A stretch of DNA of 64,000 nt from Pseudomonas phage PhiPA3. This document shows positions 2,681 to 44,709 of the stretch, piece by piece. Below the pieces are notes generated by a model. The model ran no database searches. It had not been told where the DNA came from and worked only from the letters and a program-made list of their open reading frames with translations. The DNA lies in the sequence record HQ630627.1; one strand, 5' to 3'. Made by a program: the position numbers and the translations under genes. Position 1 is the stretch's first letter; every line of letters starts with the position of its first letter.

Positions 2681-3814
2681 GTGAATACAATGATTGAACA
2701 AAGAAGCGCTTACGAAGAAGCTGTATTACACGGCTTCAAAGGTTCTCAGGATGATTGGTTCCGTAGCTTAGAGGGACGTAAGCATCCGTACGACACGCTG
2801 GATACAGTGGTCAATGCTTCGCAGGCACACTTCGATTACATCGCTAGTAAAATAGCACCAGGGATGAGTAGCCTGTTTATCGAACAGAAGTTCGACCTCG
2901 CCCTAGATGAAAAGAACTACCTCGACAAAGTCGTTGAACTCTACAACGACGAATGCTCGGATCTGGATAACGCCGACCGTGCTCGTCTTTTCAACATGGT
3001 CAAGGCAGCTCGTTACCTGATCAAAGGCATTATCTACGGACGTCCCTACTCCCAACCCCGTTTACTAGAAGCTTGGGCACAATGTCCGAAGAGTCGTTTT
3101 GACTATTTCAAGGATAAAGTACCCAGGTACGATACCGAATGTACACAGGTACACCCTGATATCGATCTCACATGGCGTCTTAACAAAGGAAAAGACATGC
3201 AAGCTTCTCAGAACACTCTTCGTGGCCAAACCTCAAGCATCACCCACATGGACGACGCTATGTTTATGTCTACCCACAAGATACCTGAACTCCTGACCCC
3301 GGTCGAAGAGATTTCCACCGCTGACGTACCCCCGGCAAATCAGTCTATTCCTCAGGGTAACCGTAAGGAACGTCGTATCGCTGGTAAGAAACAAAAGAAC
3401 AAACGCAAGAAACACATCGCCAACTGTAAGTCTGGTTTCCACAAAGCAGTAATGGGTTCTATGGTCCTCAGTCGCCTTGGTCGTGTCCAACAAGATACCC
3501 AAGACAACCTGAAGAAAGCCCTGCTCAAAGACCATGCCATGGCTGATGTCGTGGAAGCGGCCACCGGTGAGAAGCTCCCAGCTTATCAACGTAATCTGTT
3601 GAACCAAATGCAAGAGCGTGCTCAGCATGGTAAATCGATCGTCGAAGAACACGAAAGACTGGTCAGCGAAGAGGATGCCGAAATGTTCGTCAATAAGGGA
3701 GTCCCTGAGGAAGTCCTCGATGGGCAGTTTAATCTGGTACCAGCTGGAGATAGCAGCGCAGAAGAGTCTGACGAAGGACTGGAAGTAGACGACGGCGTAG
3801 CCGATCGCGATTAA
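2681..3814 (+). CDS. hypothetical protein (377 aa, basic KR-rich segment)
   Basis: ORF with upstream GGTG RBS, acidic C-terminus. Confidence 0.5.
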   Translation: MNTMIEQRSAYEEAVLHGFKGSQDDWFRSLEGRKHPYDTLDTVVNASQAHFDYIASKIAPGMSSLFIEQKFDLALDEKNYLDKVVELYNDECSDLDNADRARLFNMVKAARYLIKGIIYGRPYSQPRLLEAWAQCPKSRFDYFKDKVPRYDTECTQVHPDIDLTWRLNKGKDMQASQNTLRGQTSSITHMDDAMFMSTHKIPELLTPVEEISTADVPPANQSIPQGNRKERRIAGKKQKNKRKKHIANCKSGFHKAVMGSMVLSRLGRVQQDTQDNLKKALLKDHAMADVVEAATGEKLPAYQRNLLNQMQERAQHGKSIVEEHERLVSEEDAEMFVNKGVPEEVLDGQFNLVPAGDSSAEESDEGLEVDDGVADRD

Positions 3815-3820
3815 CATAAC

Positions 3821-3846
3821 GCTCCTGCTTCGGCAGGAGCTTATGC
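3821..3846 (+). terminator. UUCG-loop hairpin followed by TTATGC
   Basis: gctcctgc-ttcg-gcaggagc-ttatgcc. Confidence 0.55.
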
Positions 3847-3864
3847 CAATTTAAGGAAAATACA

Positions 3865-4335
3865 ATGGCCAAAGTAATCATGCCGTCTCAGTTGAAGAAA
3901 TTCAACTCGTTCAACATCATGTACATGCTCCGCTCGGTATTCTGCCTGTACAACATCCAACAGAGCGAGATGTACGCTCTGAACGATACCGCCATGTTGT
4001 TGAATGGCAAACTGGTGGAAATCCCCGAGATCGAGATTGGCGTCCCTGCACCGATCTTTGATCGCGTCCACAAAGCCTTCCCTCAGCTGTTCGATCCCAA
4101 GAAAAAGGTATTGCGTCTTCGTGAACGGTTGATTGCCCGTCGACTGGAAGTGATCAAGAAGAGTGAGTACCAATATCAAGGCCCTTACTACATTCGTAAG
4201 TTGGAAGTATTGATCCGTGATGCTGAGGATGCTCTGCGTTGCCCCTCACTGTCTCAAGCCAAGCAGAAGCGTGTAACTACTAACTTGTTGATCATGAAGG
4301 ATAAAACTATCCAACATCGGGTCTACAACCGCTAA
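3865..4335 (+). CDS. hypothetical protein (156 aa)
   Basis: ORF with AAGGAAAA RBS, ends at the bidirectional hairpin. Confidence 0.5.
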   Translation: MAKVIMPSQLKKFNSFNIMYMLRSVFCLYNIQQSEMYALNDTAMLLNGKLVEIPEIEIGVPAPIFDRVHKAFPQLFDPKKKVLRLRERLIARRLEVIKKSEYQYQGPYYIRKLEVLIRDAEDALRCPSLSQAKQKRVTTNLLIMKDKTIQHRVYNR

Positions 4336-18320: not shown

Positions 18321-19967
18321 ATGAACGGCTTCATCATGGGCGCCACTCCCGGTAATGGAAAGCTCCGGATCACGAAAATGATTGCAGTGCAGACGGGCAC
18401 CTATCAGGAACAACACGTCCGTCCGTTCAATATTAACGCCAACAAGGAGGCGGTACAACGCCTGGATATCGCTACTCGTGGTGGTAACAACTTGGGCGTT
18501 CAAGCTGTACAAGAAGTTGCCTCGGACATCATCGTTCCGCAAGCGATGGTAGAAGGCGTAGTTGGCATCAAAGAAGGCTGGCGTTCTCGCCGATTCCGTT
18601 TCATGATGAATGTGAATGAAACCCATCCATTCATTCAGGGTACTGTTACTCAGCGTATCTTCTTTGGTTATTCCGACCACTGCGATGCGTCTGCTCAGTA
18701 CCTGCCTGACGACATGCGTGTCTACTTCAACTCCGAAACGATCGTGGTGTCTGCTATTCAAAACACTGTGAATGGCCCTCAACGGGTCGTTAACATCGTC
18801 GGTACCAACCAGATCGTGTCTCCAGTCGATATGATGGGTGGTAGTAACGGCATGTTTGCCCGAGCTACTTCACATCTGTGCCGTCCTGAAGACATGTTCA
18901 ACATTCAACAAACCCAGACTGTTGCACAGCGCCTTCAGGACTCGGGTATGTTCGATGGAGTGATTGCTCGTTCGATCGATCACCGTACTATGGTTGGTGA
19001 AGGCGGCGCATTCAAATACAGTACGCGTCGTGATACCTCTCCTGTTCGTTATCTTTCCAACAGCTTGAATGCCTACCAGCATTCGGTCAAGGAACTGGCA
19101 ATGGCGGAGCATGGTGATGACATGTTCGGTCAGCCATCGCAGGAAGTTCTGTTCGGTGAAGCTGCATCTCACTGCCGTAATGCCAGTATTCACAGCAACA
19201 CTTTCCTGGCAATGCTGAAAGATCATGCAGGTTACATGGAACGTGGTTACGTTACTTGGGGTGAGTTGCGTGCGATCTTCCCGGAGCTGAACCAATATGG
19301 CCAGGGTGGTGTTACCAACTTCGCAATGGACAACGGCCGTTCGATTCAGAAAGTTTCGATGGCTGAAGACTCCGCTGGTTGGGCAGGTGCGGACTATACC
19401 TCCATTGGGGCAAGCCTGCTTGCACAAGCGATTCCATCGATCATGATGGACACCTATCTGCGCCGCATCAGCTTTGCTGTTACCAACGGCATGGGTCCGA
19501 ACAACTACGCTGTCGAAATTCATCCAACTGGTACCAAATCCATCATCGATGACCTGGACACAGCCACCATTACCAAACACATCATGGAATTCGAACGTCG
19601 TTTGGGTACTGACATTCTGAATAACATCAGTCGCGGTAACCAGATTCCGTTTAAGATTTCCATGGCCTCCGATCTGGCTGGTGATTCCGTAATCGATATC
19701 AGTGTTGGCGGTGAACCGGTTGCTCGATTCGTAGCACCGACTTTCTCCGACAGCCTGTTCTCGCCGGTAATCACTCGTAATGATCAACTACCGACTAACA
19801 TGTCTGGTGACCTGACTTGGTTGGTCCAACAAGTCATCCCGAATCAAATGCAAAATCAAGCAATCAACATGGTTGGCTATAACCACCCAGTTGCACCTGC
19901 CGCTACCATGTCTGCCAATACCAATCAAGGAGTAATGAATAATGTCGCTGACCTTGGACTGCTATAA
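18321..19967 (+). CDS. hypothetical protein (548 aa)
   Basis: AAGAGG RBS, long ORF. Confidence 0.5.
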   Translation: MNGFIMGATPGNGKLRITKMIAVQTGTYQEQHVRPFNINANKEAVQRLDIATRGGNNLGVQAVQEVASDIIVPQAMVEGVVGIKEGWRSRRFRFMMNVNETHPFIQGTVTQRIFFGYSDHCDASAQYLPDDMRVYFNSETIVVSAIQNTVNGPQRVVNIVGTNQIVSPVDMMGGSNGMFARATSHLCRPEDMFNIQQTQTVAQRLQDSGMFDGVIARSIDHRTMVGEGGAFKYSTRRDTSPVRYLSNSLNAYQHSVKELAMAEHGDDMFGQPSQEVLFGEAASHCRNASIHSNTFLAMLKDHAGYMERGYVTWGELRAIFPELNQYGQGGVTNFAMDNGRSIQKVSMAEDSAGWAGADYTSIGASLLAQAIPSIMMDTYLRRISFAVTNGMGPNNYAVEIHPTGTKSIIDDLDTATITKHIMEFERRLGTDILNNISRGNQIPFKISMASDLAGDSVIDISVGGEPVARFVAPTFSDSLFSPVITRNDQLPTNMSGDLTWLVQQVIPNQMQNQAINMVGYNHPVAPAATMSANTNQGVMNNVADLGLL

Positions 19968-21267
19968 GGAAGTCCTGACCTCGCTTTCGTGTGTCTTCGA
20001 TGACGATGGTCTGATCTCCGTAGAAGCCCCAACCGGCTCTGCCAAGCCTGTTAAAGTCGAGGGGCGACGTCTGGTGCTCCCGACTAAAGAATGGCTGCGT
20101 AAAGGCTTCGGTGAAGACTACCAACCGTTCCACCCGCTGTGTGAGTCTCTGTCCCGTCGTGGTACCTCTCCGGTTATGCAGTTTATTCAGCGTTCCGTGA
20201 AGGCCAACCTGTCACACATCGTGGTATTCATGGCCACTAACCTGCTGCGAATTGCAGTAGATCAATCCACTCACAAGGATCTCCCGCCAGATACAACCGA
20301 CTTCCTCAAGAAGTTGGCTGACGCTGACAAGTCCTGCCTGACAGCTTTCGAGAAACTGATCGGCTCTGCCGTTAAGAAGAATCGTCTGATGACAGTCTAT
20401 CTGAAGAACGGCGGTACTTTTGACGGTAAGAAAGTGGACCGTATGGCAATCGTACGTTTCCCGATCCTCGAAGATCTGGCTAGCGAAAGCAAAGAAGTTC
20501 TGGGTATCGCATTGACCAAGAAACAACGCAAGGTAATTACTGCCCTGCTGCGCCTGGTCGTGCCTTTCGGCGACAATCCGGAAGAATACGCTTACGGTAC
20601 TCGTAGCCGTGTTGCTCCTTACTTCGAATCGATCCTGCATGCGTATCACAAGATCGCCACTGTACTGAACCAACTGATTCACCATTACGCGGTTCCGCTA
20701 CATATGCCCATCAAACCCATCGAGTTGTACGATCTTAAGATGCTGGAAAGCTTCGGTAAGATCTACAACGAGATTCCGGTTTTGGCTGGCAACGAAGGTG
20801 GTCACTCCGACACCCCGGAAGAAGCAGCAGGTACCACCGAACAGGCGCGAGCAGCTACCCAACCAACCGCCACCCAAACTGTTCAACCATCGCGTACCCC
20901 GGCTGTTACTCAGCAACCTGTCGCTACCACTGTGGCCCAACCTGCACATGGTAAAACCGTGAGCATGTCGGACTTCATGGCTGCGCAGAATCCGGCACCG
21001 ATGATGGCAGTCAATACCATGGTCAACCCCATGACCATGGGTGGAATGAACTCGGGTATGATGGGTATGGGTCAACCGATGATGTCTCCCATGGCTCCGG
21101 CCATGATGCCCATGGGTCAACCTACCGGCGGCATGTACGCGCCAACCAACACCTTGCTCCCATGGCAAGCGCAGCAGCAACAGATGATGCAGGCTCAACA
21201 GCCAGCTAATCCATTTGCGGCAGCAATTGCCCCGATGACCACCGGTGGTGGACTGGGTCTCCTGTAA
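19942..21267 (+). CDS. hypothetical protein with Met/Pro/Gly-rich low-complexity C-terminus
   Basis: AGGAG RBS; C-terminal ~110 aa enriched in MGQP/MMxM repeats. Confidence 0.5.
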   Translation: MSLTLDCYKEVLTSLSCVFDDDGLISVEAPTGSAKPVKVEGRRLVLPTKEWLRKGFGEDYQPFHPLCESLSRRGTSPVMQFIQRSVKANLSHIVVFMATNLLRIAVDQSTHKDLPPDTTDFLKKLADADKSCLTAFEKLIGSAVKKNRLMTVYLKNGGTFDGKKVDRMAIVRFPILEDLASESKEVLGIALTKKQRKVITALLRLVVPFGDNPEEYAYGTRSRVAPYFESILHAYHKIATVLNQLIHHYAVPLHMPIKPIELYDLKMLESFGKIYNEIPVLAGNEGGHSDTPEEAAGTTEQARAATQPTATQTVQPSRTPAVTQQPVATTVAQPAHGKTVSMSDFMAAQNPAPMMAVNTMVNPMTMGGMNSGMMGMGQPMMSPMAPAMMPMGQPTGGMYAPTNTLLPWQAQQQQMMQAQQPANPFAAAIAPMTTGGGLGLL

Positions 21268-21714: not shown

Positions 21715-21810
21715 TAGAATCAACAAGGAGTGAGGCCATGAAGCGTTAAGAGTGTAAAATACTCAACATGACATAAGCGGTAGATACCGGCAATAAAAGG
21801 ACAGTTTAAG

Positions 21811-23013
21811 ATGTACGAAGAACACAACCTCCGGCGTGCAGTACGAGAGATCCATGCAAAACTTCTCGGTCATGCTGCACTGGATCCGTATTATGGAACT
21901 ACCTCCGCTGCTCGTGGAGCTATGTTCTTGTCTCACATTGGTCAGGCGCCCGTTGTGGAAGGGAACGAGCCCCGCCGTGTGATGACCGGTATGGAAATGC
22001 GTTATGCCGAATACACGTTCGACGTTCGTCTACCTACGGACTGCACGATTCTGCACAAAGTCCGTAAGTACCCCACTGGGCAAGGGTATGGGGCAATCCA
22101 ACATAACCCTGTAACAACTCTGATCTACGAGAACTATTACGACGAATACAAGACCATCGGCGTACTGCATGTTCCTGAGTACATGAGTTTTCACCAGGAC
22201 TTTGGTTATGAGCTAGTCAAGAACAAAGAAGTATGGGAATCTCTGCAACCTGACCAGATGTTCGCCAAAGATACCGTTATCGCTCAGTCCTCGACTGTAA
22301 AGTCTAACGGATTGTACGGCATGGGTGTAAACGCCAACGTTGCGTTCATGTCTGTGCCTGGTACCATTGAGGACGGTTTTGTCGTCTCCGATGAGTTCTT
22401 GGAACGTATGTCCCCACGTACTTACACCACCGCAGTTTGTGGTGCGGGTAAGAAGGCATTCTTCCTGAACATGTATGGCGATGACAAGATCTACAAACCG
22501 TTCCCGGATATTGGAGAAAAGATTCGGGAAGATGGCGTGATCTTTGCGGTACGCGATTTGGATGATGACTTGGCTCCGGCCGAAATGACTCCGCGCGCCC
22601 TGCGTACGCTGGACCGTACTTTCGATCGCGCTGTTATTGGTGATCCGGGTGCGACTGTAAAAGACATCAAAGTATATTGGGACGAACGTCAGAATCCCAG
22701 TTTCACGCCAAGCGGTATGGATGGTCAACTGCGCAAGTATTACGACGCGTTGTGCACCTATTACCGGGAGATCATCAAGATCTACCGTGGGTTGCTGGCA
22801 CGGCGTAAAGACAAGCTGCGGATCAGCGAAGAGTTCAACCAGCTCCTCGTTGAAGCCATGATCTACCTACCGCAAGCTGAGGGCCAGCGTAAGCTGACTC
22901 GGATGTATCGTCTGGAACAACTGGATGAATGGCGTGTGGAACTCACCTACGAATCCATTAAAGTTCCTGGTGGTGCATATAAGCTCACAGATTTTCACGG
23001 TGGTTCGCTATGA
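21811..23013 (+). CDS. RNA polymerase beta subunit C-terminal part, exon 1
   Basis: ORF ends ...GGAYKLTDFHGG, corresponding to the beta GDKxxxRHGNKG motif truncated at HG; the stop codon lies inside the intron. Confidence 0.75.
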   Translation: MYEEHNLRRAVREIHAKLLGHAALDPYYGTTSAARGAMFLSHIGQAPVVEGNEPRRVMTGMEMRYAEYTFDVRLPTDCTILHKVRKYPTGQGYGAIQHNPVTTLIYENYYDEYKTIGVLHVPEYMSFHQDFGYELVKNKEVWESLQPDQMFAKDTVIAQSSTVKSNGLYGMGVNANVAFMSVPGTIEDGFVVSDEFLERMSPRTYTTAVCGAGKKAFFLNMYGDDKIYKPFPDIGEKIREDGVIFAVRDLDDDLAPAEMTPRALRTLDRTFDRAVIGDPGATVKDIKVYWDERQNPSFTPSGMDGQLRKYYDALCTYYREIIKIYRGLLARRKDKLRISEEFNQLLVEAMIYLPQAEGQRKLTRMYRLEQLDEWRVELTYESIKVPGGAYKLTDFHGGSL

Positions 23014-23445
23014 ATGTCAATAAACATTGATTAAAGTATACTTATTTGTCCGTGGTATGTTGAACAAGTTGCCGTAGGATAAATAAGTGAAGATTTTAAT
23101 GGATGGATATTCAAAGAAATGTAAGAGCCTGCTTAATCAGCGATGGTTAAGTAATCGTCATCTAATTGCGGGAAACCCCTGAGAGCCTTATCTACTAACT
23201 CAACCCAGCGATGGAGTTGAGGGCCAGTCTAATCCACTGGGTACAGTAAAAATGATAAGGATTGGGCAATCCGCAGCGAAGCTTCTCTTTGAGAAGAACG
23301 TTCAACGACTAACCCCTAACCAGGGTGTAGAACTTAAGCGAGTTCGAAATGGTGACCCTCTCACGCAGAGGAAGATATAGTCTGTTCCCATGTGAAAGCA
23401 TGGGCGGGTGTCATAGCACACCGGGATAGCGTAGCGAACTATCTG
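23002..23445 (+). ncRNA. group I self-splicing intron (ORF-less, IA-like) in the RNAP beta gene
   Basis: P AATTGCGGGAAA (23163-74), Q AATCCGCAGC (23267-76), R GTTCAACGACTA (23299-310), S AAGATATAGTCT (23372-83), P9 hairpin cccatg/catggg. Boundaries approximate. Confidence 0.75.
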
Positions 23446-24447
23446 GACAAAAAGAAAGGAGTAGTCTGTGAGGTGAGACCGAAAGCTGATATGCCAGTGG
23501 ACGAATTTGGTAACGTCGTAGACGCTATCATCTTCGGTGGTTCCACCATGCGTCGTTCTAACTATGGTCGGATCTACGAACACGGTTTCGGAGCAGCATC
23601 CCGAGACCTGGCGCAACGTCTACGTGTTGAAGCTGGCCTTCCCCGTCATGGCGTAGTACCGGAGCAAGATCTGAATCGGGTTTGCAGCAATCGAGAGTGG
23701 GTTACTTACGCTTTCGCTGAACTGCAAGAGTTCTATTACATCATCGCGCCAACCATGCACGAGATATTGAGAGAACACCCAAGTCCAGCTGAGTACGTAA
23801 AAACCGTTCTTCGTGATGGTTTCTCGTACATCTACAGCCCGGTAGACGATCCGGTAGACCTGATGAGTTCACTGAACTGCATCATGAACAGTCGTTTCTG
23901 CCCGAACCATACGCGAGTTACCTATCGCGGTCAAGATGGGAAGATGGTCACCACCAAGGACAAAGTTCTGGTTGGTCCGCTGTACATGATGTTGCTGGAG
24001 AAGATCGGTGAAGACTGGTCTGCCGTAGCGTCGGTAAAAGTTCAGCAATTCGGCCTGCCGTCTAAACTGAACAACTCTGACCGTTCCAGCACTCCGGGTC
24101 GGGAATCCGCCATCCGTTCGTTCGGTGAATCGGAAACTCGTTCGTATAACTGCACTGTTGGCCCAGAAGCTACGGTGGAGCTGTTGGACCAGACTAACAA
24201 CCCGAGAGCGCACCTTGCTGTGATCAACTCTATTCTGACTGCTGACAAGCCCAGTAACATTGAGCGTGCAGTGGACAGGACCAAGGTACCGTTCGGTAGT
24301 AGTCGACCGGTGGATCTGCTGGAGCACCTGCTGGAATGTCGCGGTCTTAAGTTTGAATACGCAACCACTGACGGCGTACAGCCTGTTCACACAGCTGTAC
24401 CAATCCGTGCCCAACAAAAGGTTAAGAGTGAGGCAATCGAGGAGTGA
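23446..24447 (+). CDS. RNA polymerase beta subunit C-terminal part, exon 2
   Basis: DKKKGVVCEVRPKADMPVDEFGNVVD aligns with [24 protein letters not shown]; downstream GPLYMMLLEK and RSFGESETRSY match conserved beta regions. Confidence 0.75.
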   Translation, partial: DKKKGVVCEVRPKADMPVDEFGNVVDAIIFGGSTMRRSNYGRIYEHGFGAASRDLAQRLRVEAGLPRHGVVPEQDLNRVCSNREWVTYAFAELQEFYYIIAPTMHEILREHPSPAEYVKTVLRDGFSYIYSPVDDPVDLMSSLNCIMNSRFCPNHTRVTYRGQDGKMVTTKDKVLVGPLYMMLLEKIGEDWSAVASVKVQQFGLPSKLNNSDRSSTPGRESAIRSFGESETRSYNCTVGPEATVELLDQTNNPRAHLAVINSILTADKPSNIERAVDRTKVPFGSSRPVDLLEHLLECRGLKFEYATTDGVQPVHTAVPIRAQQKVKSEAIEE

Positions 24448-26420
24448 AGATGAACCAGTACAATGCTCGTGATCTCCTCAACATGTCGTATGATGACTTG
24501 TTCGCCATTCCGAATGAGTGGCACAAGATCATCTTCGACGATGGAGAGATTCTCACCAAAGATCGCGCCACTAAACTGTCGATTCTGCTTTGGCATCCGC
24601 TGAAGCAGTTTCCGAATGCTACGCTGTCCGTGAAGTACCACCTGGGAGACACTCGGGTTACCTCGAAGTCCCTAGTGAAACTCCTGAACAGCGTGATCTG
24701 GGGAATTCATGCGTGGAGTAATGAGCAGGTCGATCCGGAGGTTCTGGCCCGTCTCGCAATCGAAGCGAAGAACGTTCTGTATAACGAAGCTACTTCCCGC
24801 CTTGGTGCCTACGTAGCAACGCTGTCCATGTTCGAAATCGCGGAGGTTTACAATCATCCAAAAGTCCGTGAGGCCAACCAAAACATTGAGCCTACCACCC
24901 ACGGCATCGAAACTATTGCTTACGGCAAAATAAAGGAAGCTTTCAACGACCCAACACAGTTCCGCGGTAACAGCATCATCGAGGGTCTGCGCTCCGGGAC
25001 GCAAAAGATGGAACAGTTGCTCCAAGCTTTCGGTCCTCGTGGATTCCCGACCGACATCAACTCCGATATCTTCGCTGAACCTTGTCTGACTGGGTACATT
25101 GATGGTATCTGGGGTCTGTATGAGAACATGATCGAATCGCGTTCTGGTACCAAGGCTCTGTTGTATAACAAAGAGTTGTTGCGGGTAACCGAGTACTTCA
25201 ACCGGAAGTCTCAGCTGATCGCACAATATGTGCAGCGTCTCCATAAGGGTGACTGTGGTGCAGGGTACATTGAGTTCCCGGTCATCAAAGCTTACCTGAA
25301 ATCGCTACGCGGTAAGTTCTACCTGAACGAGGAAACAGGCAAGCGAGAGATCCTGCAAGGAAACGAGACTCATCTGATCGGTAAGAAGATCAAGATGCGT
25401 TCCGTGCTGGGTTGCGTACATCCTGATCCGCAAGGTATTTGTGCAACGTGTTACGGTACGCTAGCCGATAACATTCCGAGAGGCACGAACATCGGCCAAG
25501 TGTCTGCTGTATCCATGGGTGACAAAATCACCTCATCGGTACTGTCGACTAAACACACCGATGCGACTTCCGCTGTAGAGCAATACAAAATCACTGGCGT
25601 TGAAGCTAAGTACCTAAGAGAAGGTCAGGCGCCTGAAACGTTGTACCTGAAGAAGGAGCTTGCTAATAAGGGCTATCGCTTGATGATCGGCCGCAACGAA
25701 GCGCAGAACTTGGCTGACGTGCTGATGATCGATAACTTGAGTGCATATCCACCCACATCTGCATCCGAACTGACTCGTATCGGTTTGGTTCGCACGGTGG
25801 ATGGGATTGATGAGGGGGATGTCCTGACGGTATCGTTGTATAACCGTAAGGCTAGCCTGTCAATCGAATTGCTGCAACATGTGAAGCGTGTTCGCTGGGA
25901 ACTGGACAACCGGGATAACATCGTCATCGACCTGAATGGTTTCGATTTCTCCCTGCCATTCCTGACCCTACCGTACAAGCACGTTAACATGTACGAAGTG
26001 ATGAAGCGGATTCAAAGCTTCTTGCACTCCGGTAGCGACACCGAAGGTTCTAAACTGAGTTCTGATAAGGTAGGATTTACTAGCAAGACTTATCTTAAGA
26101 ACTACAATGACCCCATCGATGCCGTTGCAGCATTTGCTTCTCTGGTCAACGAGAAGATTCAATTGCCAATGCCGCACTGTGAAGTACTGGTTTATGCTAT
26201 GATGGTTCGGTCCACGCAACAGCGTGACTACCGTCTGCCTAAACCGGGTATTTCGGGTCAGTTTGAGAAGTATAACAAGCTGATGCAATCCCGCTCGCTC
26301 GCCGGCGCAATGGCGTTTGAGAAGCAGCATGAGCCGTTGAATAACCCCGGCAGCTTCCTCTATACGCTGAGGAATGACCACCCGTACGACCTTGCGGTCA
26401 AGGGAGGTAAGCTGTACTAA
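24444..26420 (+). CDS. RNA polymerase beta' subunit C-terminal part (phiKZ gp74-like)
   Basis: CATCYGTLADNIPRGTNIGQVSAVSMGDKITSSVLSTKHT matches the beta' [42 protein letters not shown] region; start overlaps the beta stop (ATGA). Confidence 0.7.
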   Translation: MKMNQYNARDLLNMSYDDLFAIPNEWHKIIFDDGEILTKDRATKLSILLWHPLKQFPNATLSVKYHLGDTRVTSKSLVKLLNSVIWGIHAWSNEQVDPEVLARLAIEAKNVLYNEATSRLGAYVATLSMFEIAEVYNHPKVREANQNIEPTTHGIETIAYGKIKEAFNDPTQFRGNSIIEGLRSGTQKMEQLLQAFGPRGFPTDINSDIFAEPCLTGYIDGIWGLYENMIESRSGTKALLYNKELLRVTEYFNRKSQLIAQYVQRLHKGDCGAGYIEFPVIKAYLKSLRGKFYLNEETGKREILQGNETHLIGKKIKMRSVLGCVHPDPQGICATCYGTLADNIPRGTNIGQVSAVSMGDKITSSVLSTKHTDATSAVEQYKITGVEAKYLREGQAPETLYLKKELANKGYRLMIGRNEAQNLADVLMIDNLSAYPPTSASELTRIGLVRTVDGIDEGDVLTVSLYNRKASLSIELLQHVKRVRWELDNRDNIVIDLNGFDFSLPFLTLPYKHVNMYEVMKRIQSFLHSGSDTEGSKLSSDKVGFTSKTYLKNYNDPIDAVAAFASLVNEKIQLPMPHCEVLVYAMMVRSTQQRDYRLPKPGISGQFEKYNKLMQSRSLAGAMAFEKQHEPLNNPGSFLYTLRNDHPYDLAVKGGKLY

Positions 26421-26477: not shown

Positions 26478-28010
26478 ATGGAACCGATACTCAAAGCTGA
26501 ACGCTACACGCATGGTGTCCGACTATCTGGGTATACGCGGGAAACGTTTCACAAGATGCAGGGATTCCTCGAAGGCCTGATGTTAAAAGAGCCCAAGAAG
26601 ATCCCAGGTAATCGAGTGATCATGGAACTTAAGAAAAAGTACTATGGTTGCTTCGAAGATACATCCGAAACTTATATCCATCGCAATTGCTTGGAAGACC
26701 TGATCGGTTATCTGGCAAACAAAAATGTTCCACGCGATCGGATTGAAGTAGTCGATATCCCCGTGCCGGAGTCAGCGAAAGCTGTCTACGACATGTACGA
26801 GAAATACGTACTGCGGGAATATCAGGAAATCATTAAGGCGGATATTCTTCGACCGCATCTCCATTCAGCTCGTGTAGACCTGCAAACAGGAAAAGGGAAA
26901 ACGCTTACGAGCTTGGCGGCGCTAGCCGACCTGGGGGTTCGGTGCGTTGTGATGGTTCCACCCAAGTACTTCGGTATTTGGATTGAGGCATTACAGAACA
27001 CTTTCAAAGATATGGCACAGCGTTGGATCACCATCTCTGGCTCGGCTGAACTACAAAAGTTGATTGACCGAGGCATTGAAAATGATCTGGATGGTATTGA
27101 TGTCATTATCGTCTCGTCAACGACCTACAGGGCCTACCTAGATAACTTTGAGAAGTACGGTAATGAGTTGCATACCCTAGGGTATAACGCTCCACCACCG
27201 CGCTTCCACGAGGCTATCAAGGCAGGGTTCCAGATCAACGATGAGATTCAAGAAGACCCAGGCTTAGTATTCAGAACCGACATCTATTCGAACATCGCAT
27301 TGCAGGTTTATCTGTCTGCTACCCCCTACACAGGAAATGCGTACGTTACGAAGATGATTGATAAGATGCTCCCGGAAGAGACCATGTGTCGCCTGCCGGA
27401 TCTAGACGTCTACATCAATTGCATCGGTCTACTGTACAACGAAGCCAAGATCAAACCCAAAGACTACCTAACCCCGTTTAAGAACACCTATAACCATGCC
27501 CGTTACGAAACGGTCATGATGAAGGATCCTAAACGGATGGATCAATACTTCAAGATGGTGGCGAGAGTAGCAGAAGGGGTGTTCATCAAAGATCGGTTAC
27601 CCGGTCAGAAAATGCTGTTCCTTTGTGCAACTGTAGCTTTCATTGAGAAGCTGACCAAGTACCTGAAGTCGCGGTTCCCTGATCTCGTGATCAATGGGCA
27701 CGTCTCTGGGTGCGCCTACGAGCAACTCCTGAAGAATGACATTACTGTCTCGACGATTAAGTCGTCGGGTACCGGCGTGGACATTCCTAACCTACGGGAA
27801 GTGGGGCTGCTCCAAGCAACTGACTCGAAGAAGGATAACATCCAGATTCTGGGTCGACTCCGTAAACTCAGGGACTTCCCTGATGTGACCCCTCGGCTGA
27901 CGTTCATGGTGTGTGAGACTATACCGCATCATGTTCGCTATGCAAAATCGAAGCGGGATCATTTCAACGGAAGAACTCTTAGTTTCAAGTTCATGCGTAT
28001 AGCAATGTAA
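26478..28010 (+). CDS. superfamily-2 helicase
   Basis: Q-motif REYQ, motif I TGKGKT, motif II DEIQE, motif III SAT, motif V TGVDIP, motif VI QILGRLRKLR. Confidence 0.65.
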   Translation: MEPILKAERYTHGVRLSGYTRETFHKMQGFLEGLMLKEPKKIPGNRVIMELKKKYYGCFEDTSETYIHRNCLEDLIGYLANKNVPRDRIEVVDIPVPESAKAVYDMYEKYVLREYQEIIKADILRPHLHSARVDLQTGKGKTLTSLAALADLGVRCVVMVPPKYFGIWIEALQNTFKDMAQRWITISGSAELQKLIDRGIENDLDGIDVIIVSSTTYRAYLDNFEKYGNELHTLGYNAPPPRFHEAIKAGFQINDEIQEDPGLVFRTDIYSNIALQVYLSATPYTGNAYVTKMIDKMLPEETMCRLPDLDVYINCIGLLYNEAKIKPKDYLTPFKNTYNHARYETVMMKDPKRMDQYFKMVARVAEGVFIKDRLPGQKMLFLCATVAFIEKLTKYLKSRFPDLVINGHVSGCAYEQLLKNDITVSTIKSSGTGVDIPNLREVGLLQATDSKKDNIQILGRLRKLRDFPDVTPRLTFMVCETIPHHVRYAKSKRDHFNGRTLSFKFMRIAM

Positions 28011-28018
28011 GAAACAAA

Positions 28019-28045
28019 AGCCCTCCCTTCGGGGAGGGTTTATGT
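28019..28045 (+). terminator. hairpin gccctccc-ttcg-gggagggt followed by TTATGTC
   Basis: UUCG-loop hairpin plus TATG motif. Confidence 0.55.
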
Positions 28046-28069
28046 CATCATTAACAAAAGGAAAATGCT

Positions 28070-28321
28070 TTGAACTGGGGATCTCTAGTAGATTTTATGT
28101 TTGCCATTGGTGGACCACTGTTGACGGTAGCTACCTACGCCCGACTGATCCACTACTTCCTACTGAAGACTTATTACAAGAAGAGTAGACTCCATCCATT
28201 CGATAAGCGGGTAGCAGGTTGGTTTAAGCGAATGTCCAATATCGCTTTCGTTCTGTATATCCCAGTGCTCTGCTTTTATATCTTCGGCCTTGGGTTAGTC
28301 GCATTCAAACGTCTGCAATGA
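28070..28321 (+). CDS. small 2-TM membrane protein (83 aa)
   Basis: two hydrophobic helices; first of five tandem small TM ORFs. Confidence 0.45.
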   Translation: MNWGSLVDFMFAIGGPLLTVATYARLIHYFLLKTYYKKSRLHPFDKRVAGWFKRMSNIAFVLYIPVLCFYIFGLGLVAFKRLQ

Positions 28322-28391
28322 TGACTTTGAATGCAGCTATATTTAATCCAGTTTAATGCCTATATTACAAGCTTGATATAAGGAAAGCCCA

Positions 28392-28682
28392 ATGTACGTT
28401 TTTGTTCAGGTTATGTCCATCGTTACTTTGATTGGTTTGGTCTCAATGTTCTTTGTTGCACAAAACTTTCAAGTAAAGCATCTGCGTGCTCAAACGACCT
28501 TCCTTAAGATAGCTACGCTCAGTGGCAACATCAAGAAGGAAGATTATGAGATCTACCATAAGTGGAAGAAGCTCCAACGTTCCTATCGTATCTTCCGGAA
28601 GATCTATCAGGTCTTTGCATACGCTTTCCTGCTCTTCGTTTCTAATTACTTCATTCTAGAATCCGTCCTCAAAGGAGGCTGA
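28392..28682 (+). CDS. small 2-TM membrane protein (96 aa)
   Basis: two hydrophobic helices separated by a basic loop; AAGGAAAG RBS. Confidence 0.45.
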   Translation: MYVFVQVMSIVTLIGLVSMFFVAQNFQVKHLRAQTTFLKIATLSGNIKKEDYEIYHKWKKLQRSYRIFRKIYQVFAYAFLLFVSNYFILESVLKGG

Positions 28683-28683
28683 T

Positions 28684-28869
28684 ATGGGTTGGACAATCCT
28701 CGTCGTTGTCCATATGGCTGTGTTCGTTGTTGGTCTGATCTTCTTGGGTACAGGCCTGTTCGTGGCTCGTGACTGTGGTACACGTGTTAACTGTTTGGTG
28801 CTCGGTGTTGCTCTAGTGAGTAGCTCGGGCTGGTCTGCAATCGAGTTGTTTCACTTACTCCCCCACTAG
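28684..28869 (+). CDS. small 2-TM membrane protein (61 aa)
   Basis: AAAGGAGG RBS, two hydrophobic segments. Confidence 0.45.
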   Translation: MGWTILVVVHMAVFVVGLIFLGTGLFVARDCGTRVNCLVLGVALVSSSGWSAIELFHLLPH

Positions 28870-28878
28870 GAAACTCCA

Positions 28879-29139
28879 ATGGAACTATTCCACAATCCGC
28901 TCGCTGTTGTGTACTTCCTGATCTCCCCCATCGGTATTTTCTTGTTCGTACTGATCTTGCTGTGGGGTCTGATCGCCCAACGCTGGATAGTCTATGGCTA
29001 TCCCAAGCATTCGTTCCTGCGCCGTCTGAACTGGTTGGTTTGGCTCGGCATCACACTCCTGTACCTGATGGTGTTCCTGTCGTCTTTGGGATGCGTCTTC
29101 GCTTTCCCGACATCATCGGTGTGCAACGTCTGGGGGTAA
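28879..29139 (+). CDS. small 2-3-TM membrane protein (86 aa)
   Basis: hydrophobic segments; GGAAACTCCAATGG start context. Confidence 0.45.
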   Translation: MELFHNPLAVVYFLISPIGIFLFVLILLWGLIAQRWIVYGYPKHSFLRRLNWLVWLGITLLYLMVFLSSLGCVFAFPTSSVCNVWG

Positions 29140-29145
29140 CTCCAA

Positions 29146-29382
29146 ATGAACAACTGGGAACTCATTGAAGTTGGTATTAGCCTGATCGCAGCTGCGGTTA
29201 CTTGCCTCATCGTAATGCGCCGTCGTGATCACACCTACCTTAATCAACCGGTTAAGGTAGAGAAGGTAGATGCAGAATCCAAGAGTGCCTGGGTAACACT
29301 TGGCTTCATCTGCATCTTCTTTCTGATCTTCTTGTTTATTTCTGGATACGGTATCATGAAACTAGTACAGATCCAGTCATAA
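29146..29382 (+). CDS. small 2-TM membrane protein (78 aa)
   Basis: N- and C-terminal hydrophobic helices. Confidence 0.45.
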   Translation: MNNWELIEVGISLIAAAVTCLIVMRRRDHTYLNQPVKVEKVDAESKSAWVTLGFICIFFLIFLFISGYGIMKLVQIQS

Positions 29383-29387
29383 CGACA

Positions 29388-29423
29388 TAAACCCCTCTCC
29401 TTCGGGAGAGGGGCGTTATGCAT
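29388..29423. terminator. bidirectional hairpin, identical copy of 4343-4374
   Basis: 52-bp exact repeat including hairpin, TTATGC and T-run. Confidence 0.6.
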
Positions 29424-29867
29424 TTATTTTTTTGTCATTCCCTGGATTTCTTTCTCCAGTTCTTTGATCTTACTGTCCCCAATAGTTGATTTATATTCAG
29501 CCAACTTCGTTAGGAACAGAGCACGTGGGTACGGTAGTTCGAAGAACTCGTCTATATTCAATCGGCTAATTTCGCCAATATTTAAATTGACGTATTTACG
29601 CATCCACGTGAATTCTGGCCCACCCTCCCAGATGTCCTCCTTTGGATGAAGTTTAACCAAATCCAAAGGAGTTGCATGTGGAGCGCTATGGTCAAATATA
29701 CCGTAGTCATGGTGGTAGGCTTTTCGAGTAAGCATTTCTGCTACCGTTGGCCTTACCGCATCCAAGTTGTTTATCAGCTCAGTTAACTGGACAACCTTGG
29801 TGGAAGGTTCTAACCCGAAAGTGTGCATGCAGATATGTCCGTTAGGGTCGTTCAAATCTACGTTCAA
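29424..29867 (-). CDS. hypothetical protein (147 aa)
   Basis: minus-strand ORF ending at the bidirectional terminator. Confidence 0.45.
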   Translation of the reverse strand: MNVDLNDPNGHICMHTFGLEPSTKVVQLTELINNLDAVRPTVAEMLTRKAYHHDYGIFDHSAPHATPLDLVKLHPKEDIWEGGPEFTWMRKYVNLNIGEISRLNIDEFFELPYPRALFLTKLAEYKSTIGDSKIKELEKEIQGMTKK

Positions 29868-34548: not shown

Positions 34549-35742
34549 ATGCATTATCTAGATATCCCCGCAGTTAACGGTGTCCTTACGATTAGCCACG
34601 TAGCAACAGGTTCGTTTTATATGGTGTGCGCGACGAATATACGCGACGCCGCTATAAATGCTAATGGCCAACTACGCTTGGGTACTTATCAAAGTCCAAA
34701 ACTCCAAGAACTTTATCTACAATCTGACGAACTCGATTTTACGTTTATCGAAACGGCAGATAAGGAAGAGTCACGGAGTATCCGTCAAAAAGTAATGGCG
34801 GAAAACTATGGCAATGATAAGCTACTAAATCAGCAGGACTGGCCTAAGCTTACCGGAGTGTTTAAACTTGAACACTCAGCTACTGGTAAATTGATTATTG
34901 GTACCACTCAGGATATTATAAAACAGCACAGCTATCAAGCCACACTACTTCGAACTGGAAAGCATAAGTGTCCTGAGTTCCAATCTCTCTATGACCCGGA
35001 AGTTGGTACAAGTGCGTTTAAGTTCTCTTTCTCCATTTGCACTGATAAAGAAGAAGCTAAATCGGTTGCACAGGAATGGATCAAAGATGCTGTTAAACGG
35101 GGCGTTTATCTAACTGGTTCTACCGTTAAACCAGCCAAGGTTGAAGAAGTCGGTAAATTGTGCGGGGTTTATCGGATAACCTTCCCGGCTACTGGACATT
35201 TCTATATCGGTAGTAGCGGTCATGTCCGTCAGCGACTAGCTCACCACAAGAGTCGACTTAAGGCTGGGCTACACGCCAGCAGTCAAGTGCAGGAGTGCTA
35301 CAATAACAATGGTGGCGAGTATACTACCGACACCATCTATACGGATACCCGTGATGAGGCTTACGCACTGGAACAGAAGTTAATCGACTTACATCAAGTC
35401 GATCCATTGTTTTTGAACTTTGGTAGTGACGTGAAGTCGGTCGTCAAGGATCTTTGGGCTAATCCGGAATATCGTGATCGCATTATCAATGGTTCAGTTA
35501 AATCGGTTAGAGATCCAGAACGGCGAAAAGCTTACGGCGAAAAGATGAAAGCTTACTGGGCTACGCCAGAGGCTAAAGCTAAGCGCATGGGTGGGGGAAA
35601 TCCATTTGCCCGGAAAGTGAGTGTCTTTGGAATCGTATACGGCTCTATTATGGATGCGGTTCGTGCTAAAGCTTTGCCAGATGCTAAACTTCGCCAACGT
35701 TTAAAAGACCCTGAAGACAAAGAAGTCTTCTATGTTAGCTGA
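34549..35742 (+). CDS. free-standing GIY-YIG homing endonuclease with three tandem GIY-YIG modules
   Basis: The third module is canonical (GVYRITF...HFYIGSS...R...H...YNNNGGE). Two degenerate upstream modules (GVLTIS...SFYMV; GVFKLE...KLIIGTT) sit with a repeated basic C-terminal region. GC is lower and codon usage atypical. Confidence 0.6.
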   Translation: MHYLDIPAVNGVLTISHVATGSFYMVCATNIRDAAINANGQLRLGTYQSPKLQELYLQSDELDFTFIETADKEESRSIRQKVMAENYGNDKLLNQQDWPKLTGVFKLEHSATGKLIIGTTQDIIKQHSYQATLLRTGKHKCPEFQSLYDPEVGTSAFKFSFSICTDKEEAKSVAQEWIKDAVKRGVYLTGSTVKPAKVEEVGKLCGVYRITFPATGHFYIGSSGHVRQRLAHHKSRLKAGLHASSQVQECYNNNGGEYTTDTIYTDTRDEAYALEQKLIDLHQVDPLFLNFGSDVKSVVKDLWANPEYRDRIINGSVKSVRDPERRKAYGEKMKAYWATPEAKAKRMGGGNPFARKVSVFGIVYGSIMDAVRAKALPDAKLRQRLKDPEDKEVFYVS

Positions 35743-42305: not shown

Positions 42306-42545
42306 TACTTTGGGGGTTGAGTTTCCTTGTGTTTTAGGTAAGCTGCCAGCATGTTATCCAGTTTGGCACCTTTCATGATCTTCTGTGCAATTTCGATACC
42401 GTTGACTCGACCCCCTGTCAGGTTCACACCCACTTCACGACGATCATGTTCAGAGATGTCTTTCATTGCCGAGAACTCCATGACGGTAGTCTCACGAGCA
42501 ATGTTCAGAATCTGACTCACGTTCGGATACGTACTTACAATCCAT
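42305..42545 (-). CDS. DNA polymerase (exonuclease part), exon 2
   Basis: short open frame continuing after the intron's 3' end; the upstream boundary is approximate. Confidence 0.4.
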
Positions 42546-42885
42546 ACCTTCGATAGAGTTCGTTATGCTCTACCCGCGTTTACACGCTGCTCCAGGCTTT
42601 CCCTGGATGTGGAGACTATATCACCATCCTTCTCTTTCGAGGATCGGATGCTTCCTATTTCCACCCACTTGGATGTACTCCCTTACGGGATAGTCGTTGA
42701 ACGTTCTTCTCAGAGAGAAGCTTCGCTGCGGATTGCCCAATACATGTGTCTTTTACCATACCCAGTGAGTTAGACTGGCCATCTAGTATATCGCTATCTA
42801 GACTTGGTGCACATGTCTCTAAGGATTTCCCCGTCAATTAAAGAAGTTTGCATCAAGTGTTCCAACTTGATGGGACTAATATTTA
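42546..42885 (-). ncRNA. group I self-splicing intron (ORF-less) in the DNA polymerase gene, paralogous to the intron at 23002-23445
   Basis: On the minus strand: P TTAATTGACGGGGAAA (42829-40), Q AATCCGCAGC (42725-34), R GTTCAACGACTA (42691-702), S GATATAGTCTCC (42611-24). Shares a ~60-nt near-identical Q-R core with the first intron. Confidence 0.7.
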
Positions 42886-44709
42886 ATCCAGATCAGCCAC
42901 GTGCGTAAACAAAAGTGTGTTGTAGTCGGGTAAGTCTTTGACACACTTCAGTCCGTTGGGTCCAGCCATGTACGAAGGCAGGGTAACGATCCAGGAATCG
43001 TGGCCAACAACATAGCTATCAAGATCATGAACCATCTGATCAGAGCTTGAACCAATTACACAGGGTTCAGGCCGCTTGAGATACCAGAAGTGCATGTCGT
43101 CGCACAGACGTTTCGGGTTAGAACTAAAGTTCTTGTAGTCCGAAGATTTCGAGAACAGAGTAATAGACGAAGCCAGGTCATTAATCTTTTCATCGAGTTG
43201 TTCCAGTCGAATGGAGTCGATGATGTTGTAAAGACCGTACCGGACTTTGTGGTTCTTCTGCATCTCAATGTGCCATTCGATACCTCCCAAGTAGTCAGTT
43301 TCAGCGAACTTCAGTTTACCAAAGTTCAGGCGCATCCCCACACCAAACCCAGGATGTACGTTGACACCCCAGACCAGCGAATCAACTTCTTCCCAGTGTT
43401 CTTCTCGTTCGACCTTTTCCTCACGGCGGTACTCGACTTGAACCCTCGGATCTTCCGGATCAATACCTTCTTGTAGCAGCTTCTCCTGAGCTGCGGTATA
43501 AACAGGGACATCGTTGTACGTGACGTCTACCTTATCCTTGCTCGGATCGTTGACCGACCAATATGGGTGGGCACCACTACGTTCAGCGATGGCTTTACCC
43601 ATCTTCTTCATCCAGCTGTTGAATTCCTCTTCAGTCTGAACAGTTTCCTGTTCATCCATGGAGAGTTCTTTCTTCAGGATGGCATCGAGGGCATAACTGG
43701 ATTCTTTACCTTTGGCCAATCGAGTTACACGATACGTGGCCATGGAGTCAATGCACTGGAACGACGCAGGTGCAGTAATCCAATGCCATTGGTCTTCTGG
43801 ACCTTTGGACTTGGTTACACCCGATGCCGTAGTGGTCATCGCTTGGTCTTGACGGTAATGGAAATACCGATAGTTCGGAGGAACTTGAGGATCACTGAAT
43901 ACGTTCTTCGGGTCAATGCCGTAGTTTTCCAGTGTGGTCAAGATTCGACTCATGTCGAAGTCGATATTCCAGAACGCGAAGAAGTCAGGCTTCCACTTGT
44001 GCAAACGACGCATGCAGTTGATGATGATATCAGCAGGCGAATTTACTACCTCAATTTCAATATTGAGATTACGTGCTTTTTTCAGAGTCACCAATTCTGG
44101 AATGCGTTCTAATTCGGCGAAGGTTTCGGCAACTGGGTCATCCAGATCTTTCACCCAATGCTTCAGATATGCCAGATACACGTTTTCCTTGTGTGTAACC
44201 GACATGCAGATAATCTGTCCCTCGTTCTCTTCTTCGTACACGTTGGTCTCGATGTCGCCACCGGCTACCGTGTTACGGGAAATAAGTTCCGGGTATTGCT
44301 CCCGGTAGTCGTTTTTGAGACAGCAGACTGAGCTTACGTCCGAACCGTACAGATAAGGGCTACGGCTCAATTGGCGCATACGTGGGTTAGGACCCATTGA
44401 GTAATCGCCTAACAACTTAGCGATCATACGTGGCATCTCCAGTTGAGTACAGGTGTACTTCTGGAGGTTACGTTCAAATTCGTAATCTTTCTTTTCTTTA
44501 TGATTTTGTCTTCCCTTCTGTGTAATCCAGAAGGGACGTTTGTAGTCTTCAACGACCCGAATACGTGGGATACGACGTTTGTCTTTAAGGTGAATGATTT
44601 CTTTGACTACGTGTGCATCATGCCTACGGCCAGTTTGGTCAGTCACATAAGTGATGTGTTTGGCTTCAATACCAACAACATCTTCTTTTGTAAATTGTAG
44701 GTCGGACAT
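42883..44709 (-). CDS. family-B DNA polymerase N-terminal part with 3'-5' exonuclease domain, exon 1
   Basis: Exo I GDIETNV, Exo II FWNIDFD and Exo III YALDAILKK at T4 gp43-like spacing. Confidence 0.55.
   Translation of the reverse strand: MSDLQFTKEDVVGIEAKHITYVTDQTGRRHDAHVVKEIIHLKDKRRIPRIRVVEDYKRPFWITQKGRQNHKEKKDYEFERNLQKYTCTQLEMPRMIAKLLGDYSMGPNPRMRQLSRSPYLYGSDVSSVCCLKNDYREQYPELISRNTVAGGDIETNVYEEENEGQIICMSVTHKENVYLAYLKHWVKDLDDPVAETFAELERIPELVTLKKARNLNIEIEVVNSPADIIINCMRRLHKWKPDFFAFWNIDFDMSRILTTLENYGIDPKNVFSDPQVPPNYRYFHYRQDQAMTTTASGVTKSKGPEDQWHWITAPASFQCIDSMATYRVTRLAKGKESSYALDAILKKELSMDEQETVQTEEEFNSWMKKMGKAIAERSGAHPYWSVNDPSKDKVDVTYNDVPVYTAAQEKLLQEGIDPEDPRVQVEYRREEKVEREEHWEEVDSLVWGVNVHPGFGVGMRLNFGKLKFAETDYLGGIEWHIEMQKNHKVRYGLYNIIDSIRLEQLDEKINDLASSITLFSKSSDYKNFSSNPKRLCDDMHFWYLKRPEPCVIGSSSDQMVHDLDSYVVGHDSWIVTLPSYMAGPNGLKCVKDLPDYNTLLFTHVADLD

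Follow-up and report, generated by a model that had tools for sequence, protein, structure and literature searches.

A predicted self-splicing group I intron without an endonuclease gene in the active-centre motif of the non-virion RNA polymerase beta gene of Pseudomonas phage PhiPA3

Introduction

The closest known case, a group I intron in gp71/gp72/gp73 of phage phiKZ, is attributed in PMC10914365, where the work is cited, to a prediction made in 2002 by Mesyanzhinov et al., and is implicit in the name gp71-73 used for the corresponding subunit of the non-virion RNA polymerase (nvRNAP) (PMC4666361). Copies of this intron without an open reading frame (ORF) are present in dozens of deposited Phikzvirus genomes, and no paper in the literature collection searched contained both 'gp71-73' and 'intron'. 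Here, a stretch of 64,000 nucleotides (nt) of Pseudomonas phage PhiPA3 (HQ630627.1), referred to below as the window, was analysed with respect to positions 23005-23454 of its plus strand, which very probably constitute a group I intron that is self-splicing, lacks an endonuclease gene and lies in the active-centre motif of the nvRNAP beta gene, the splicing itself being predicted from sequence. An earlier sequence-only reading of the window had placed such an intron at 23002-23445 and had stated that phiKZ gp71/73 is likewise intron-split, which is the case: in the phiKZ gene, a group I intron interrupts exactly the same codon junction. The window intron represents a larger architecture within this known phiKZ-type arrangement.

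Two further groups of described introns provide a comparison. The relative best studied in functional terms is the PhiPA3 gp210 intron (Birkholz et al. 2024, PMC11620839). This, too, is a group I intron, and it interrupts a chimallivirus RNA polymerase beta-like gene at a catalytic-site motif; however, the gene is that of the virion polymerase, the site is another one, after two conserved Asp residues, and the intron codes for an HNH endonuclease with nicking activity and a role in phage competition (PMC11620839), whereas the window intron has no endonuclease. The introns of T4 td, nrdB and sunY and of the SPO1 DNA polymerase gene are self-splicing and likewise occupy conserved motifs of nucleic-acid-metabolism genes, but in other host genes and other hosts. 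Introns of SPO1-like Bacillus phages were found to share 73-75% identity with positions 159-308 of the window intron.

Identification of the intron and its splice sites

The host gene is homologous to phiKZ gp71-73, which makes up the C-terminal half of the nvRNAP beta subunit. The joined exons matched 311 jumbo-phage records in tblastn, the best matches being those of the PA1C/PS119XW group (77% amino acid identity, in a single uninterrupted piece), followed by phiKZ (70.6% amino acid identity, in two pieces over PHIKZ071, 072 and 073). Exon 2 contains the Pfam domain RNA_pol_Rpb2_6 (E=3.5e-6) and aligns with chain C of PDB 7OGP (E=1.5e-162) and with residues 1064-1129 of E. coli beta, bearing out the earlier assignment of the interrupted gene to RNA polymerase beta. 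An upstream plus-strand ORF (21811-23013) has the C-terminus YKLTDFHGGSL, with its TGA stop at 23011-23013, and does not end directly after HGG as had been read; a downstream ORF in the same frame (both starts are congruent to 1 modulo 3) is already open within the intron, from the GTG at 23392 onwards, and includes LDKKKGVVCEVRPKADMPVDEFG.

Rfam was searched with the whole 64-kb window at the gathering threshold, and the families reaching the gathering score comprised two Intron_gpI (RF00028) matches only, the second of them on the minus strand. The first match, at 23111-23404 (+), spans the full model (1-253) and is significant, scoring 79.2 bits where the gathering score is 50 (E=1.8e-18), and the P, Q, R and S strings and the P9 hairpin (23387-23404) from which a group I intron had been recognised by eye are all present. 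The interruption is thereby confirmed not to be a chance pattern. That it is an intervening sequence of another kind (a group II intron, an intein or a small insertion element) has a negligible probability, since Intron_gpI is the sole Rfam family at gathering score in the window, an intein is ruled out by the stops that close the frame, and no ORF of 43 or more amino acids is found within the intron.

The intron boundaries were delineated by comparison with uninterrupted homologs. The PA1C and KEN49 genes read TDFHGGKGV(V/I)CK, HGGKGV without insertion is likewise present in five (L005, L007, L008, L010 and L011; 64-70% identity) of the six homologs from the IMG/VR database, among loci L005-L011, that lack an Intron_gpI match, and chain C of 7OGP (phiKZ gp71-73, 700 amino acids) runs unbroken across TDFHGGKGVICK, reading TDFHGG/KGV. 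Among the in-frame combinations of a U before the intron and a G at its end, only the joining of 23004 to 23455 gives the TDFHGGKGV of the intronless homologs, and the intron was therefore assigned to 23005-23454. Its removal gives back an uninterrupted conserved frame (TDFHGG/KGVV, as in PA1C, KEN49 and 7OGP_C); the restoration of the conserved block, proposed earlier, is seen in the alignment with E. coli beta, and the reconstructed protein aligns with phiKZ gp71/73 with an identical codon junction. The E. coli counterpart at the junction is RHGNKGV, the split falling between the equivalents of N1072 and K1073, in the motif HG(N/G)/KGV. The block around the junction lies in the active-centre region of beta. 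The in-frame stop at the end of the upstream ORF is supplied by the start of the intron, so that its last two residues, SL, are intron-encoded, as are the residues DKK, which had been taken for exon sequence: they are three intron codons, and intronless homologs read TDFHGGKGV.

An intron at 23002-23445, giving a protein with FHG-DKKKGV and hence a three-residue insertion relative to its homologs, is highly improbable. U23001 and G23445 do follow the rule of a U before the intron and a G at its end, and a length of 444 nt keeps the frame; however, HGGKGV occurs without insertion in seven intronless homologs (PA1C, KEN49 and the five IMG/VR loci named above; 64-77% identity) and in the PDB chain, P1 would have three pairs compared with five when splicing takes place after 23004, and the ends of five aligned relatives fall in the column of G23454, which does not vary among the six related introns aligned below (A2). 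The interruption itself was thus correctly recognised by the sequence-only reading, while its limits were placed too far upstream, by 3 nt for the 5' end and 9 nt for the 3' end.

RNA structure and covariation

All 17 helices from P1 to P9.2 are complementary, including the P3/P7 pseudoknot of the core, and GNRA tetraloops cap P2, P5b and P9 (Table 1). In P1 all five pairs between 23002-23006 and 23125-23129 form, including the U23004-G23125 wobble, and the same pairing was obtained in an unconstrained minimum-energy fold of 22996-23131. The GCC of the guide sequence lies opposite exon GGU in all 12 homologous introns inspected, and the pairs on the intron side of P1 vary in a compensatory manner among homologs (AAUU/AAUU in SL2, UC/GA here). 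The hairpins P7.1 and P7.2 (23314-25 and 23330-45), which lie between P7 and the 3' strand of P3, are IA-type features, and the intron may accordingly belong to subgroup IA2, like the T4 and SPO1 introns mentioned above.

Covariation was assessed in an alignment of six long-class introns (A2), comprising the RNA polymerase intron, four introns of IMG/VR beta genes and a DNA polymerase intron of the window; a twelve-sequence MAFFT alignment (A1) misaligned the short-class introns and was left out of the covariation count. Standard pairs occupy 89.0% of cells in A2, compared with 38-43% after a shift of the 3' partners by 1-3 columns, and both sides have changed in 47 of the 84 pairs. On four of five measures, none of 500 column shuffles attained the observed values; on the remaining measure, the number of further standard pair types, one shuffle of 500 did so. 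The compensatory changes demonstrate selection on the structure of the intron RNA.

Table 1. Coordinates of the intron, its exons and its structural elements in the window
Feature	Position	Strand	Details
Exon 1 of nvRNAP beta	21811..23004	+	398 codons, ending TDFHGG (CAC GGT GGT); from ORF and intronless homologs
Exon 2 of nvRNAP beta	23455..24447	+	330 codons and stop, starting KGVVCEVRPKADMPVDEFG
Group I intron	23005..23454	+	450 nt, starting UCGCUAUGA and ending GGACAAAAAG; terminal G23454
Predicted spliced junction	23004 joined to 23455	+	CACGGTGGT / AAAGGAGTA
P core string AATTGCGGGAAA	23164-23175	+	
Q core string AATCCGCAGC	23268-23277	+	
R core string GTTCAACGACTA	23300-23311	+	
S core string AAGATATAGTCT	23372-23383	+	
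P1 5' strand, GGU/UC	23002..23006	+	5' splice site after U23004
Internal guide sequence GAGCC (P1 3' strand)	23125..23129	+	
P1 extension, about 110 nt	23008..23116	+	two hairpins, including a 12-bp stem ACUUAUUUGUCC / GGAUAAAUAAGU; from fold
Possible remnant of an endonuclease C-terminus	23083..23124	+	reads ISEDFNGWIFKEM and stop, directly upstream of the guide sequence
P2 hairpin	23132..23151	+	GCGA tetraloop; 8/8 pairs, 6/8 with compensatory change among relatives
Catalytic core P3-P8	23157..23382	+	pairs all complementary; from Rfam alignment
P3	23157-60 / 23353-56	+	100% paired; 4/4 compensatory pairs
P4	23167-72 / 23270-75	+	
P5	23176-78 / 23264-66	+	
P5 extension, three-way junction	23186..23260	+	P5a, P5b and P5c
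P5a	23186-92 / 23254-60	+	compensatory change in 7/7 pairs
P5b	23199-204 / 23216-21	+	GCGA loop; compensatory change in 5/6 pairs
P5c	23224-28 / 23236-40	+	compensatory change in 4/5 pairs
P6	23276-77 / 23300-01	+	
P6a	23282-87 / 23291-96	+	
P7	23307-11 / 23378-82	+	invariant in six relatives
P7.1	23314-17 / 23322-25	+	
P7.2	23330-34 / 23341-45	+	
P8	23357-61 / 23367-71	+	100% paired
3' peripheral hairpins P9, P9.1 and P9.2	23387..23444	+	from fold and complementarity
P9	23387-93 / 23398-404	+	GAAA loop
P9.1	23407-11 / 23418-22	+	
P9.2	23424-29 / 23439-44	+	compensatory change in 5/6 pairs

Splicing of the beta message

From the architecture described above, we infer that the intron is removed by guanosine-initiated self-splicing, as in the standard pathway of group I introns. 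The guide sequence would pair with exon GGU and intron UC to form P1, an external guanosine would attack after U23004, the freed exon 1 would then attack after the terminal G23454, and the joined message (CAC GGT GGT/AAA GGA GTA) would be translated into one 728-amino-acid subunit containing TDFHGGKGVVCEV. Unspliced RNA would yield only a truncated product of 400 amino acids ending in HGGSL. Native phiKZ nvRNAP contains a single 74-kDa gp71-73 polypeptide (PMC4666361), which, by analogy, provides indirect support for splicing.

Several observations weigh against this interpretation. P1 is short (5 bp), P7.1 and P7.2 are the weakest helices (61-82% paired across A2), and no P10 pairing with exon 2 was found when the guide region and exon 2 were examined by eye. 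A long-read transcriptome of phiKZ contained no spliced reads at the three introns predicted in that phage, at gp56, gp72 and gp179 (PMC10914365); in the same study, the validated intron of phage LUZ24 gave only 0.03-0.9% spliced reads (PMC10914365), and the sensitivity of the long-read method for splicing may therefore be low. Furthermore, the sequence AAGGAG at 23456-23461 is followed, 11 nt on, by an in-frame GTG at 23473, so that internal initiation on unspliced RNA, with a separate start for exon 2, is conceivable. This Shine-Dalgarno-like sequence and GTG, the spliced phiKZ reads not seen (PMC10914365), and the fact that jumbo-phage RNA polymerase genes are already split into separate polypeptides (PMC7598289) would all suit a dead relic intron in a truly split gene, the exons being translated separately and assembling as two subunits, in the manner of other beta and beta' pieces of these phages. 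We consider such an arrangement very unlikely, as no core helix is disrupted, the U-G wobble and the terminal G are both preserved, the model score is high and the compensatory changes reflect selection on RNA structure. In addition, AAGGAG is probably a by-product of the codons AAA GGA GTA for K-G-V, a product starting from GTG 23473 would lack KGVVCE, and the phiKZ homolog is the single 74-kDa polypeptide cited above (PMC4666361).

The missing endonuclease gene

As had been noted from the letters, the intron carries no homing endonuclease ORF: none exceeding 42 amino acids is present in the ORF list, the longest (42 amino acids) overlaps the core, and a tblastn search of the intron with four endonucleases from homologous introns gave no match. 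The loop of the P1 extension is the place of the endonuclease gene in phiKZ and in the IMG/VR loci L015, L020 and L022. Shortly before the guide sequence, 13 nt of the segment at 23083-23124 are identical to the end of phiKZ gp72 in the corresponding position, and the segment encodes EDFNGWIF, an eight-residue match to ENLDGWIF of gp72 (E=0.009 in a very small search). This match fits the loss of an endonuclease gene by deletion but is suggestive only, the same bases forming the P1-extension stem in phiKZ and SL2. Probably, the intron descends from an endonuclease-carrying mobile intron whose gene has since been lost.

An endonuclease acting in trans was also considered and rejected. Only one ORF with a nuclease domain was found in the window, a free-standing one of 397 amino acids at 34549-35742 (+) whose C-terminal half contains a GIY-YIG domain (residues 205-283; PF01541, E=3e-8); it lies 11 kb away, adjoins neither of the two introns of the window, and nothing links it to the RNA polymerase intron. 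No homolog of its first 200 residues occurs in phage genomes, and it may have an internal true start or be a fusion.

Homologous introns and their distribution

The phiKZ and SL2 introns gave Intron_gpI matches of 87.6 and 84.2 bits, respectively, at the identical junction CAT GGT GGT/AAG GGC. The window intron lies in the same gene as the phiKZ gp71-73 intron and at the same codon junction (GGT/AAR, HGG/KGV). In both, a guide GCC faces exon GGU, and they have in common the core strings, the guide-sequence context GCCUGCUU and the P9.2 loop CGUAGCGAA, the last being present in SL2 as well; their identity is 65% across 247 aligned nt, and the 13-nt match in the P1 extension is to phiKZ. On the basis of these sequences, the window intron is an ortholog or homolog of the phiKZ and SL2 introns at the identical junction. 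Unlike it, the phiKZ intron has a length of 1218 nt, carries in its P1 loop the gene of a 316-amino-acid endonuclease, gp72 (HNH_3/NUMOD), and has no P5 extension. The window intron is distinguished by its lack of an ORF, by the presence of P5a/b/c and by a P1 extension and a P9.1 that differ from those of phiKZ. SL2, PA7, KTN4 and many other Phikzvirus isolates resemble the window in having an intron without ORF at the same junction of the same gene, but the SL2-type intron measures 307 nt compared with 450 nt and has neither the P5 extension nor the 110-nt P1 extension. The window phage is placed outside Phikzvirus because its host protein is only 70% identical. KEN49, which is a Phikzvirus, has no intron, nor has the PA1C group, the closest relatives (77% identity), and the sampled homologs of cultured phages outside Phikzvirus are unbroken at the junction.

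Among uncultured jumbo phages, Intron_gpI was found in the motif equivalent to TDFHGGKGV in 11 of 20 IMG/VR beta loci, the intron-carrying proteins being only 33-36% identical to that of the window. The junction is that of the window in L015/L016, L022 and L023, while in L014 (3671-4041) and in L018-L021 and L024 (approximately 3665-3970) the intron lies 3 nt upstream (HG/GK instead of HGG/K). In these one-codon-upstream loci the first Gly codon is GGU and the second GGA, and the guide GCC pairs with whichever Gly codon is GGU. In every intron-carrying allele, GGU occupies -3 to -1. The 3-nt shift reflects either intron sliding or a separate invasion. GGTGGT was considered as a mark of intron-carrying alleles and was ruled out, as the intronless L011 has it too. 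ORFs for endonucleases in the P1 loop were located in L015 (3765-4562), L020 (3723-4919) and L022 (3652-4587), besides that of phiKZ (L001, 4194-5144). That of L022 is homologous to phiKZ gp72 (HNH/NUMOD type), that of L020 is a 398-amino-acid HNH_3 protein other than the gp72 type, and that of L015 encodes 265 amino acids with no Pfam match. In the uncultured jumbo phages, three different and seemingly unrelated endonuclease genes (L015, L020 and L022) thus occupy the P1 loop of introns at this motif. The P5a/b/c extension and P9.1 (GGGUGUC...GCACACC) are common to the window intron, L014, L015, L022 and L023.

Presence at this one site is therefore patchy, with the intron in phiKZ-type phages and 11 of 20 IMG/VR loci and not in the PA1C group or KEN49. 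Because the nearest hosts lack the intron and its architecture is nearest to that in far more distant phages, the distribution suggests that the intron entered a conserved site by horizontal transfer and was not simply inherited vertically. A co-conversion tract was not detected, there being no local rise in sliding identity near the junction against SL2, PA1C, KEN49, L015, L023, L005 or L011.

Matches to the core of the window intron were also observed in other chimalliviruses. In 201phi2-1 (EU197055.1, 197652-197769) they lie inside another gene annotated 'RNA polymerase beta subunit', the nvRNAP beta homolog of this phage (L006) being uninterrupted, and in E. coli phage Goslar (MK327938.1, 169423-169509) they coincide with an annotated Intron_gpI. 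These matches indicate that other chimallivirus polymerase genes carry related introns.

Genomic context and a second intron

The gene order at the locus (gp69 homolog, gp70 homolog, small reverse ORF, beta gene, gp74 homolog and helicase) agrees with that of phiKZ, SL2, PA1C and KEN49. Chimallin is encoded in the window (Pfam PF25677, E=2e-286), and the DNA is therefore that of a nucleus-forming phiKZ-like phage. Megablast of 21800-24450 against phage genomes gave short matches of 77-82% identity only, an exact-protein search with the gp74 homolog gave no record and an exact 29-nt pattern taken from the P1 extension was not matched in IMG/VR; these collections thus contain no near relative of the phage. 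The gp70 homolog (19942-21267, +) has a long C-terminal low-complexity tail rich in Met, Gln, Pro and Ala (MMAVNTMVNPMTMGGMNSGMMGMGQPMMSPMAPAMMPMGQ, then QQQQMMQAQQ), and 28010-29424, approximately 1.4 kb downstream of the helicase gene, contains no ORF of 110 or more amino acids on either strand.

The minus-strand Intron_gpI match (42590-42895; 71.7 bits, E=3.2e-16) corresponds to a second group I intron at 42542-42885 (-), 344 nt long and without ORF, in the DNA polymerase gene, which it splits at THVADLD/IVSTYPNVSQ in what looks like polymerase motif A. This gene is unbroken in PA1C and has an HNH-containing insertion at the same place in HPP-Temi. The P5 extension occurs in both the DNA polymerase and the RNA polymerase intron, and their P4'-P6-P7 blocks are nearly identical; recent copying between them was ruled out, as their overall identity (65%) is not above that to the introns of other phages.

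Discussion

For annotation, the ORFs at 21811-23013 and 23392-24447 should be combined into one beta-like subunit of 728 amino acids, join(21811..23004, 23455..24447); in many deposited phiKZ-like genomes the two halves are still listed as separate proteins. If splicing takes place as predicted, an essential enzyme of a nucleus-forming phage would depend on RNA self-splicing.

One further possibility, which we regard as rather doubtful, is that the ORF-less intron is kept as a shield, and not just for being difficult to lose, the split HGG/KGV target making the essential polymerase gene immune to the gp72-type nicking endonucleases that members of the same intron family carry in co-infecting jumbo phages. 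Were this true, the ribozyme would be under positive selection, interference competition would operate as with PhiPA3 gp210, and the mixed architecture (P5 and P9.1 like those of distant phages, P9.2 like that of phiKZ) together with the two insertion points 3 nt apart would represent repeated invasion.

The same active-site motif holds related introns in phages whose beta proteins are approximately 35% identical, with at least three different endonuclease genes or none, which suggests that the site is a hot spot for intron invasion. It may thus be useful for studying both the turnover of introns and their endonucleases and the competition between phages.

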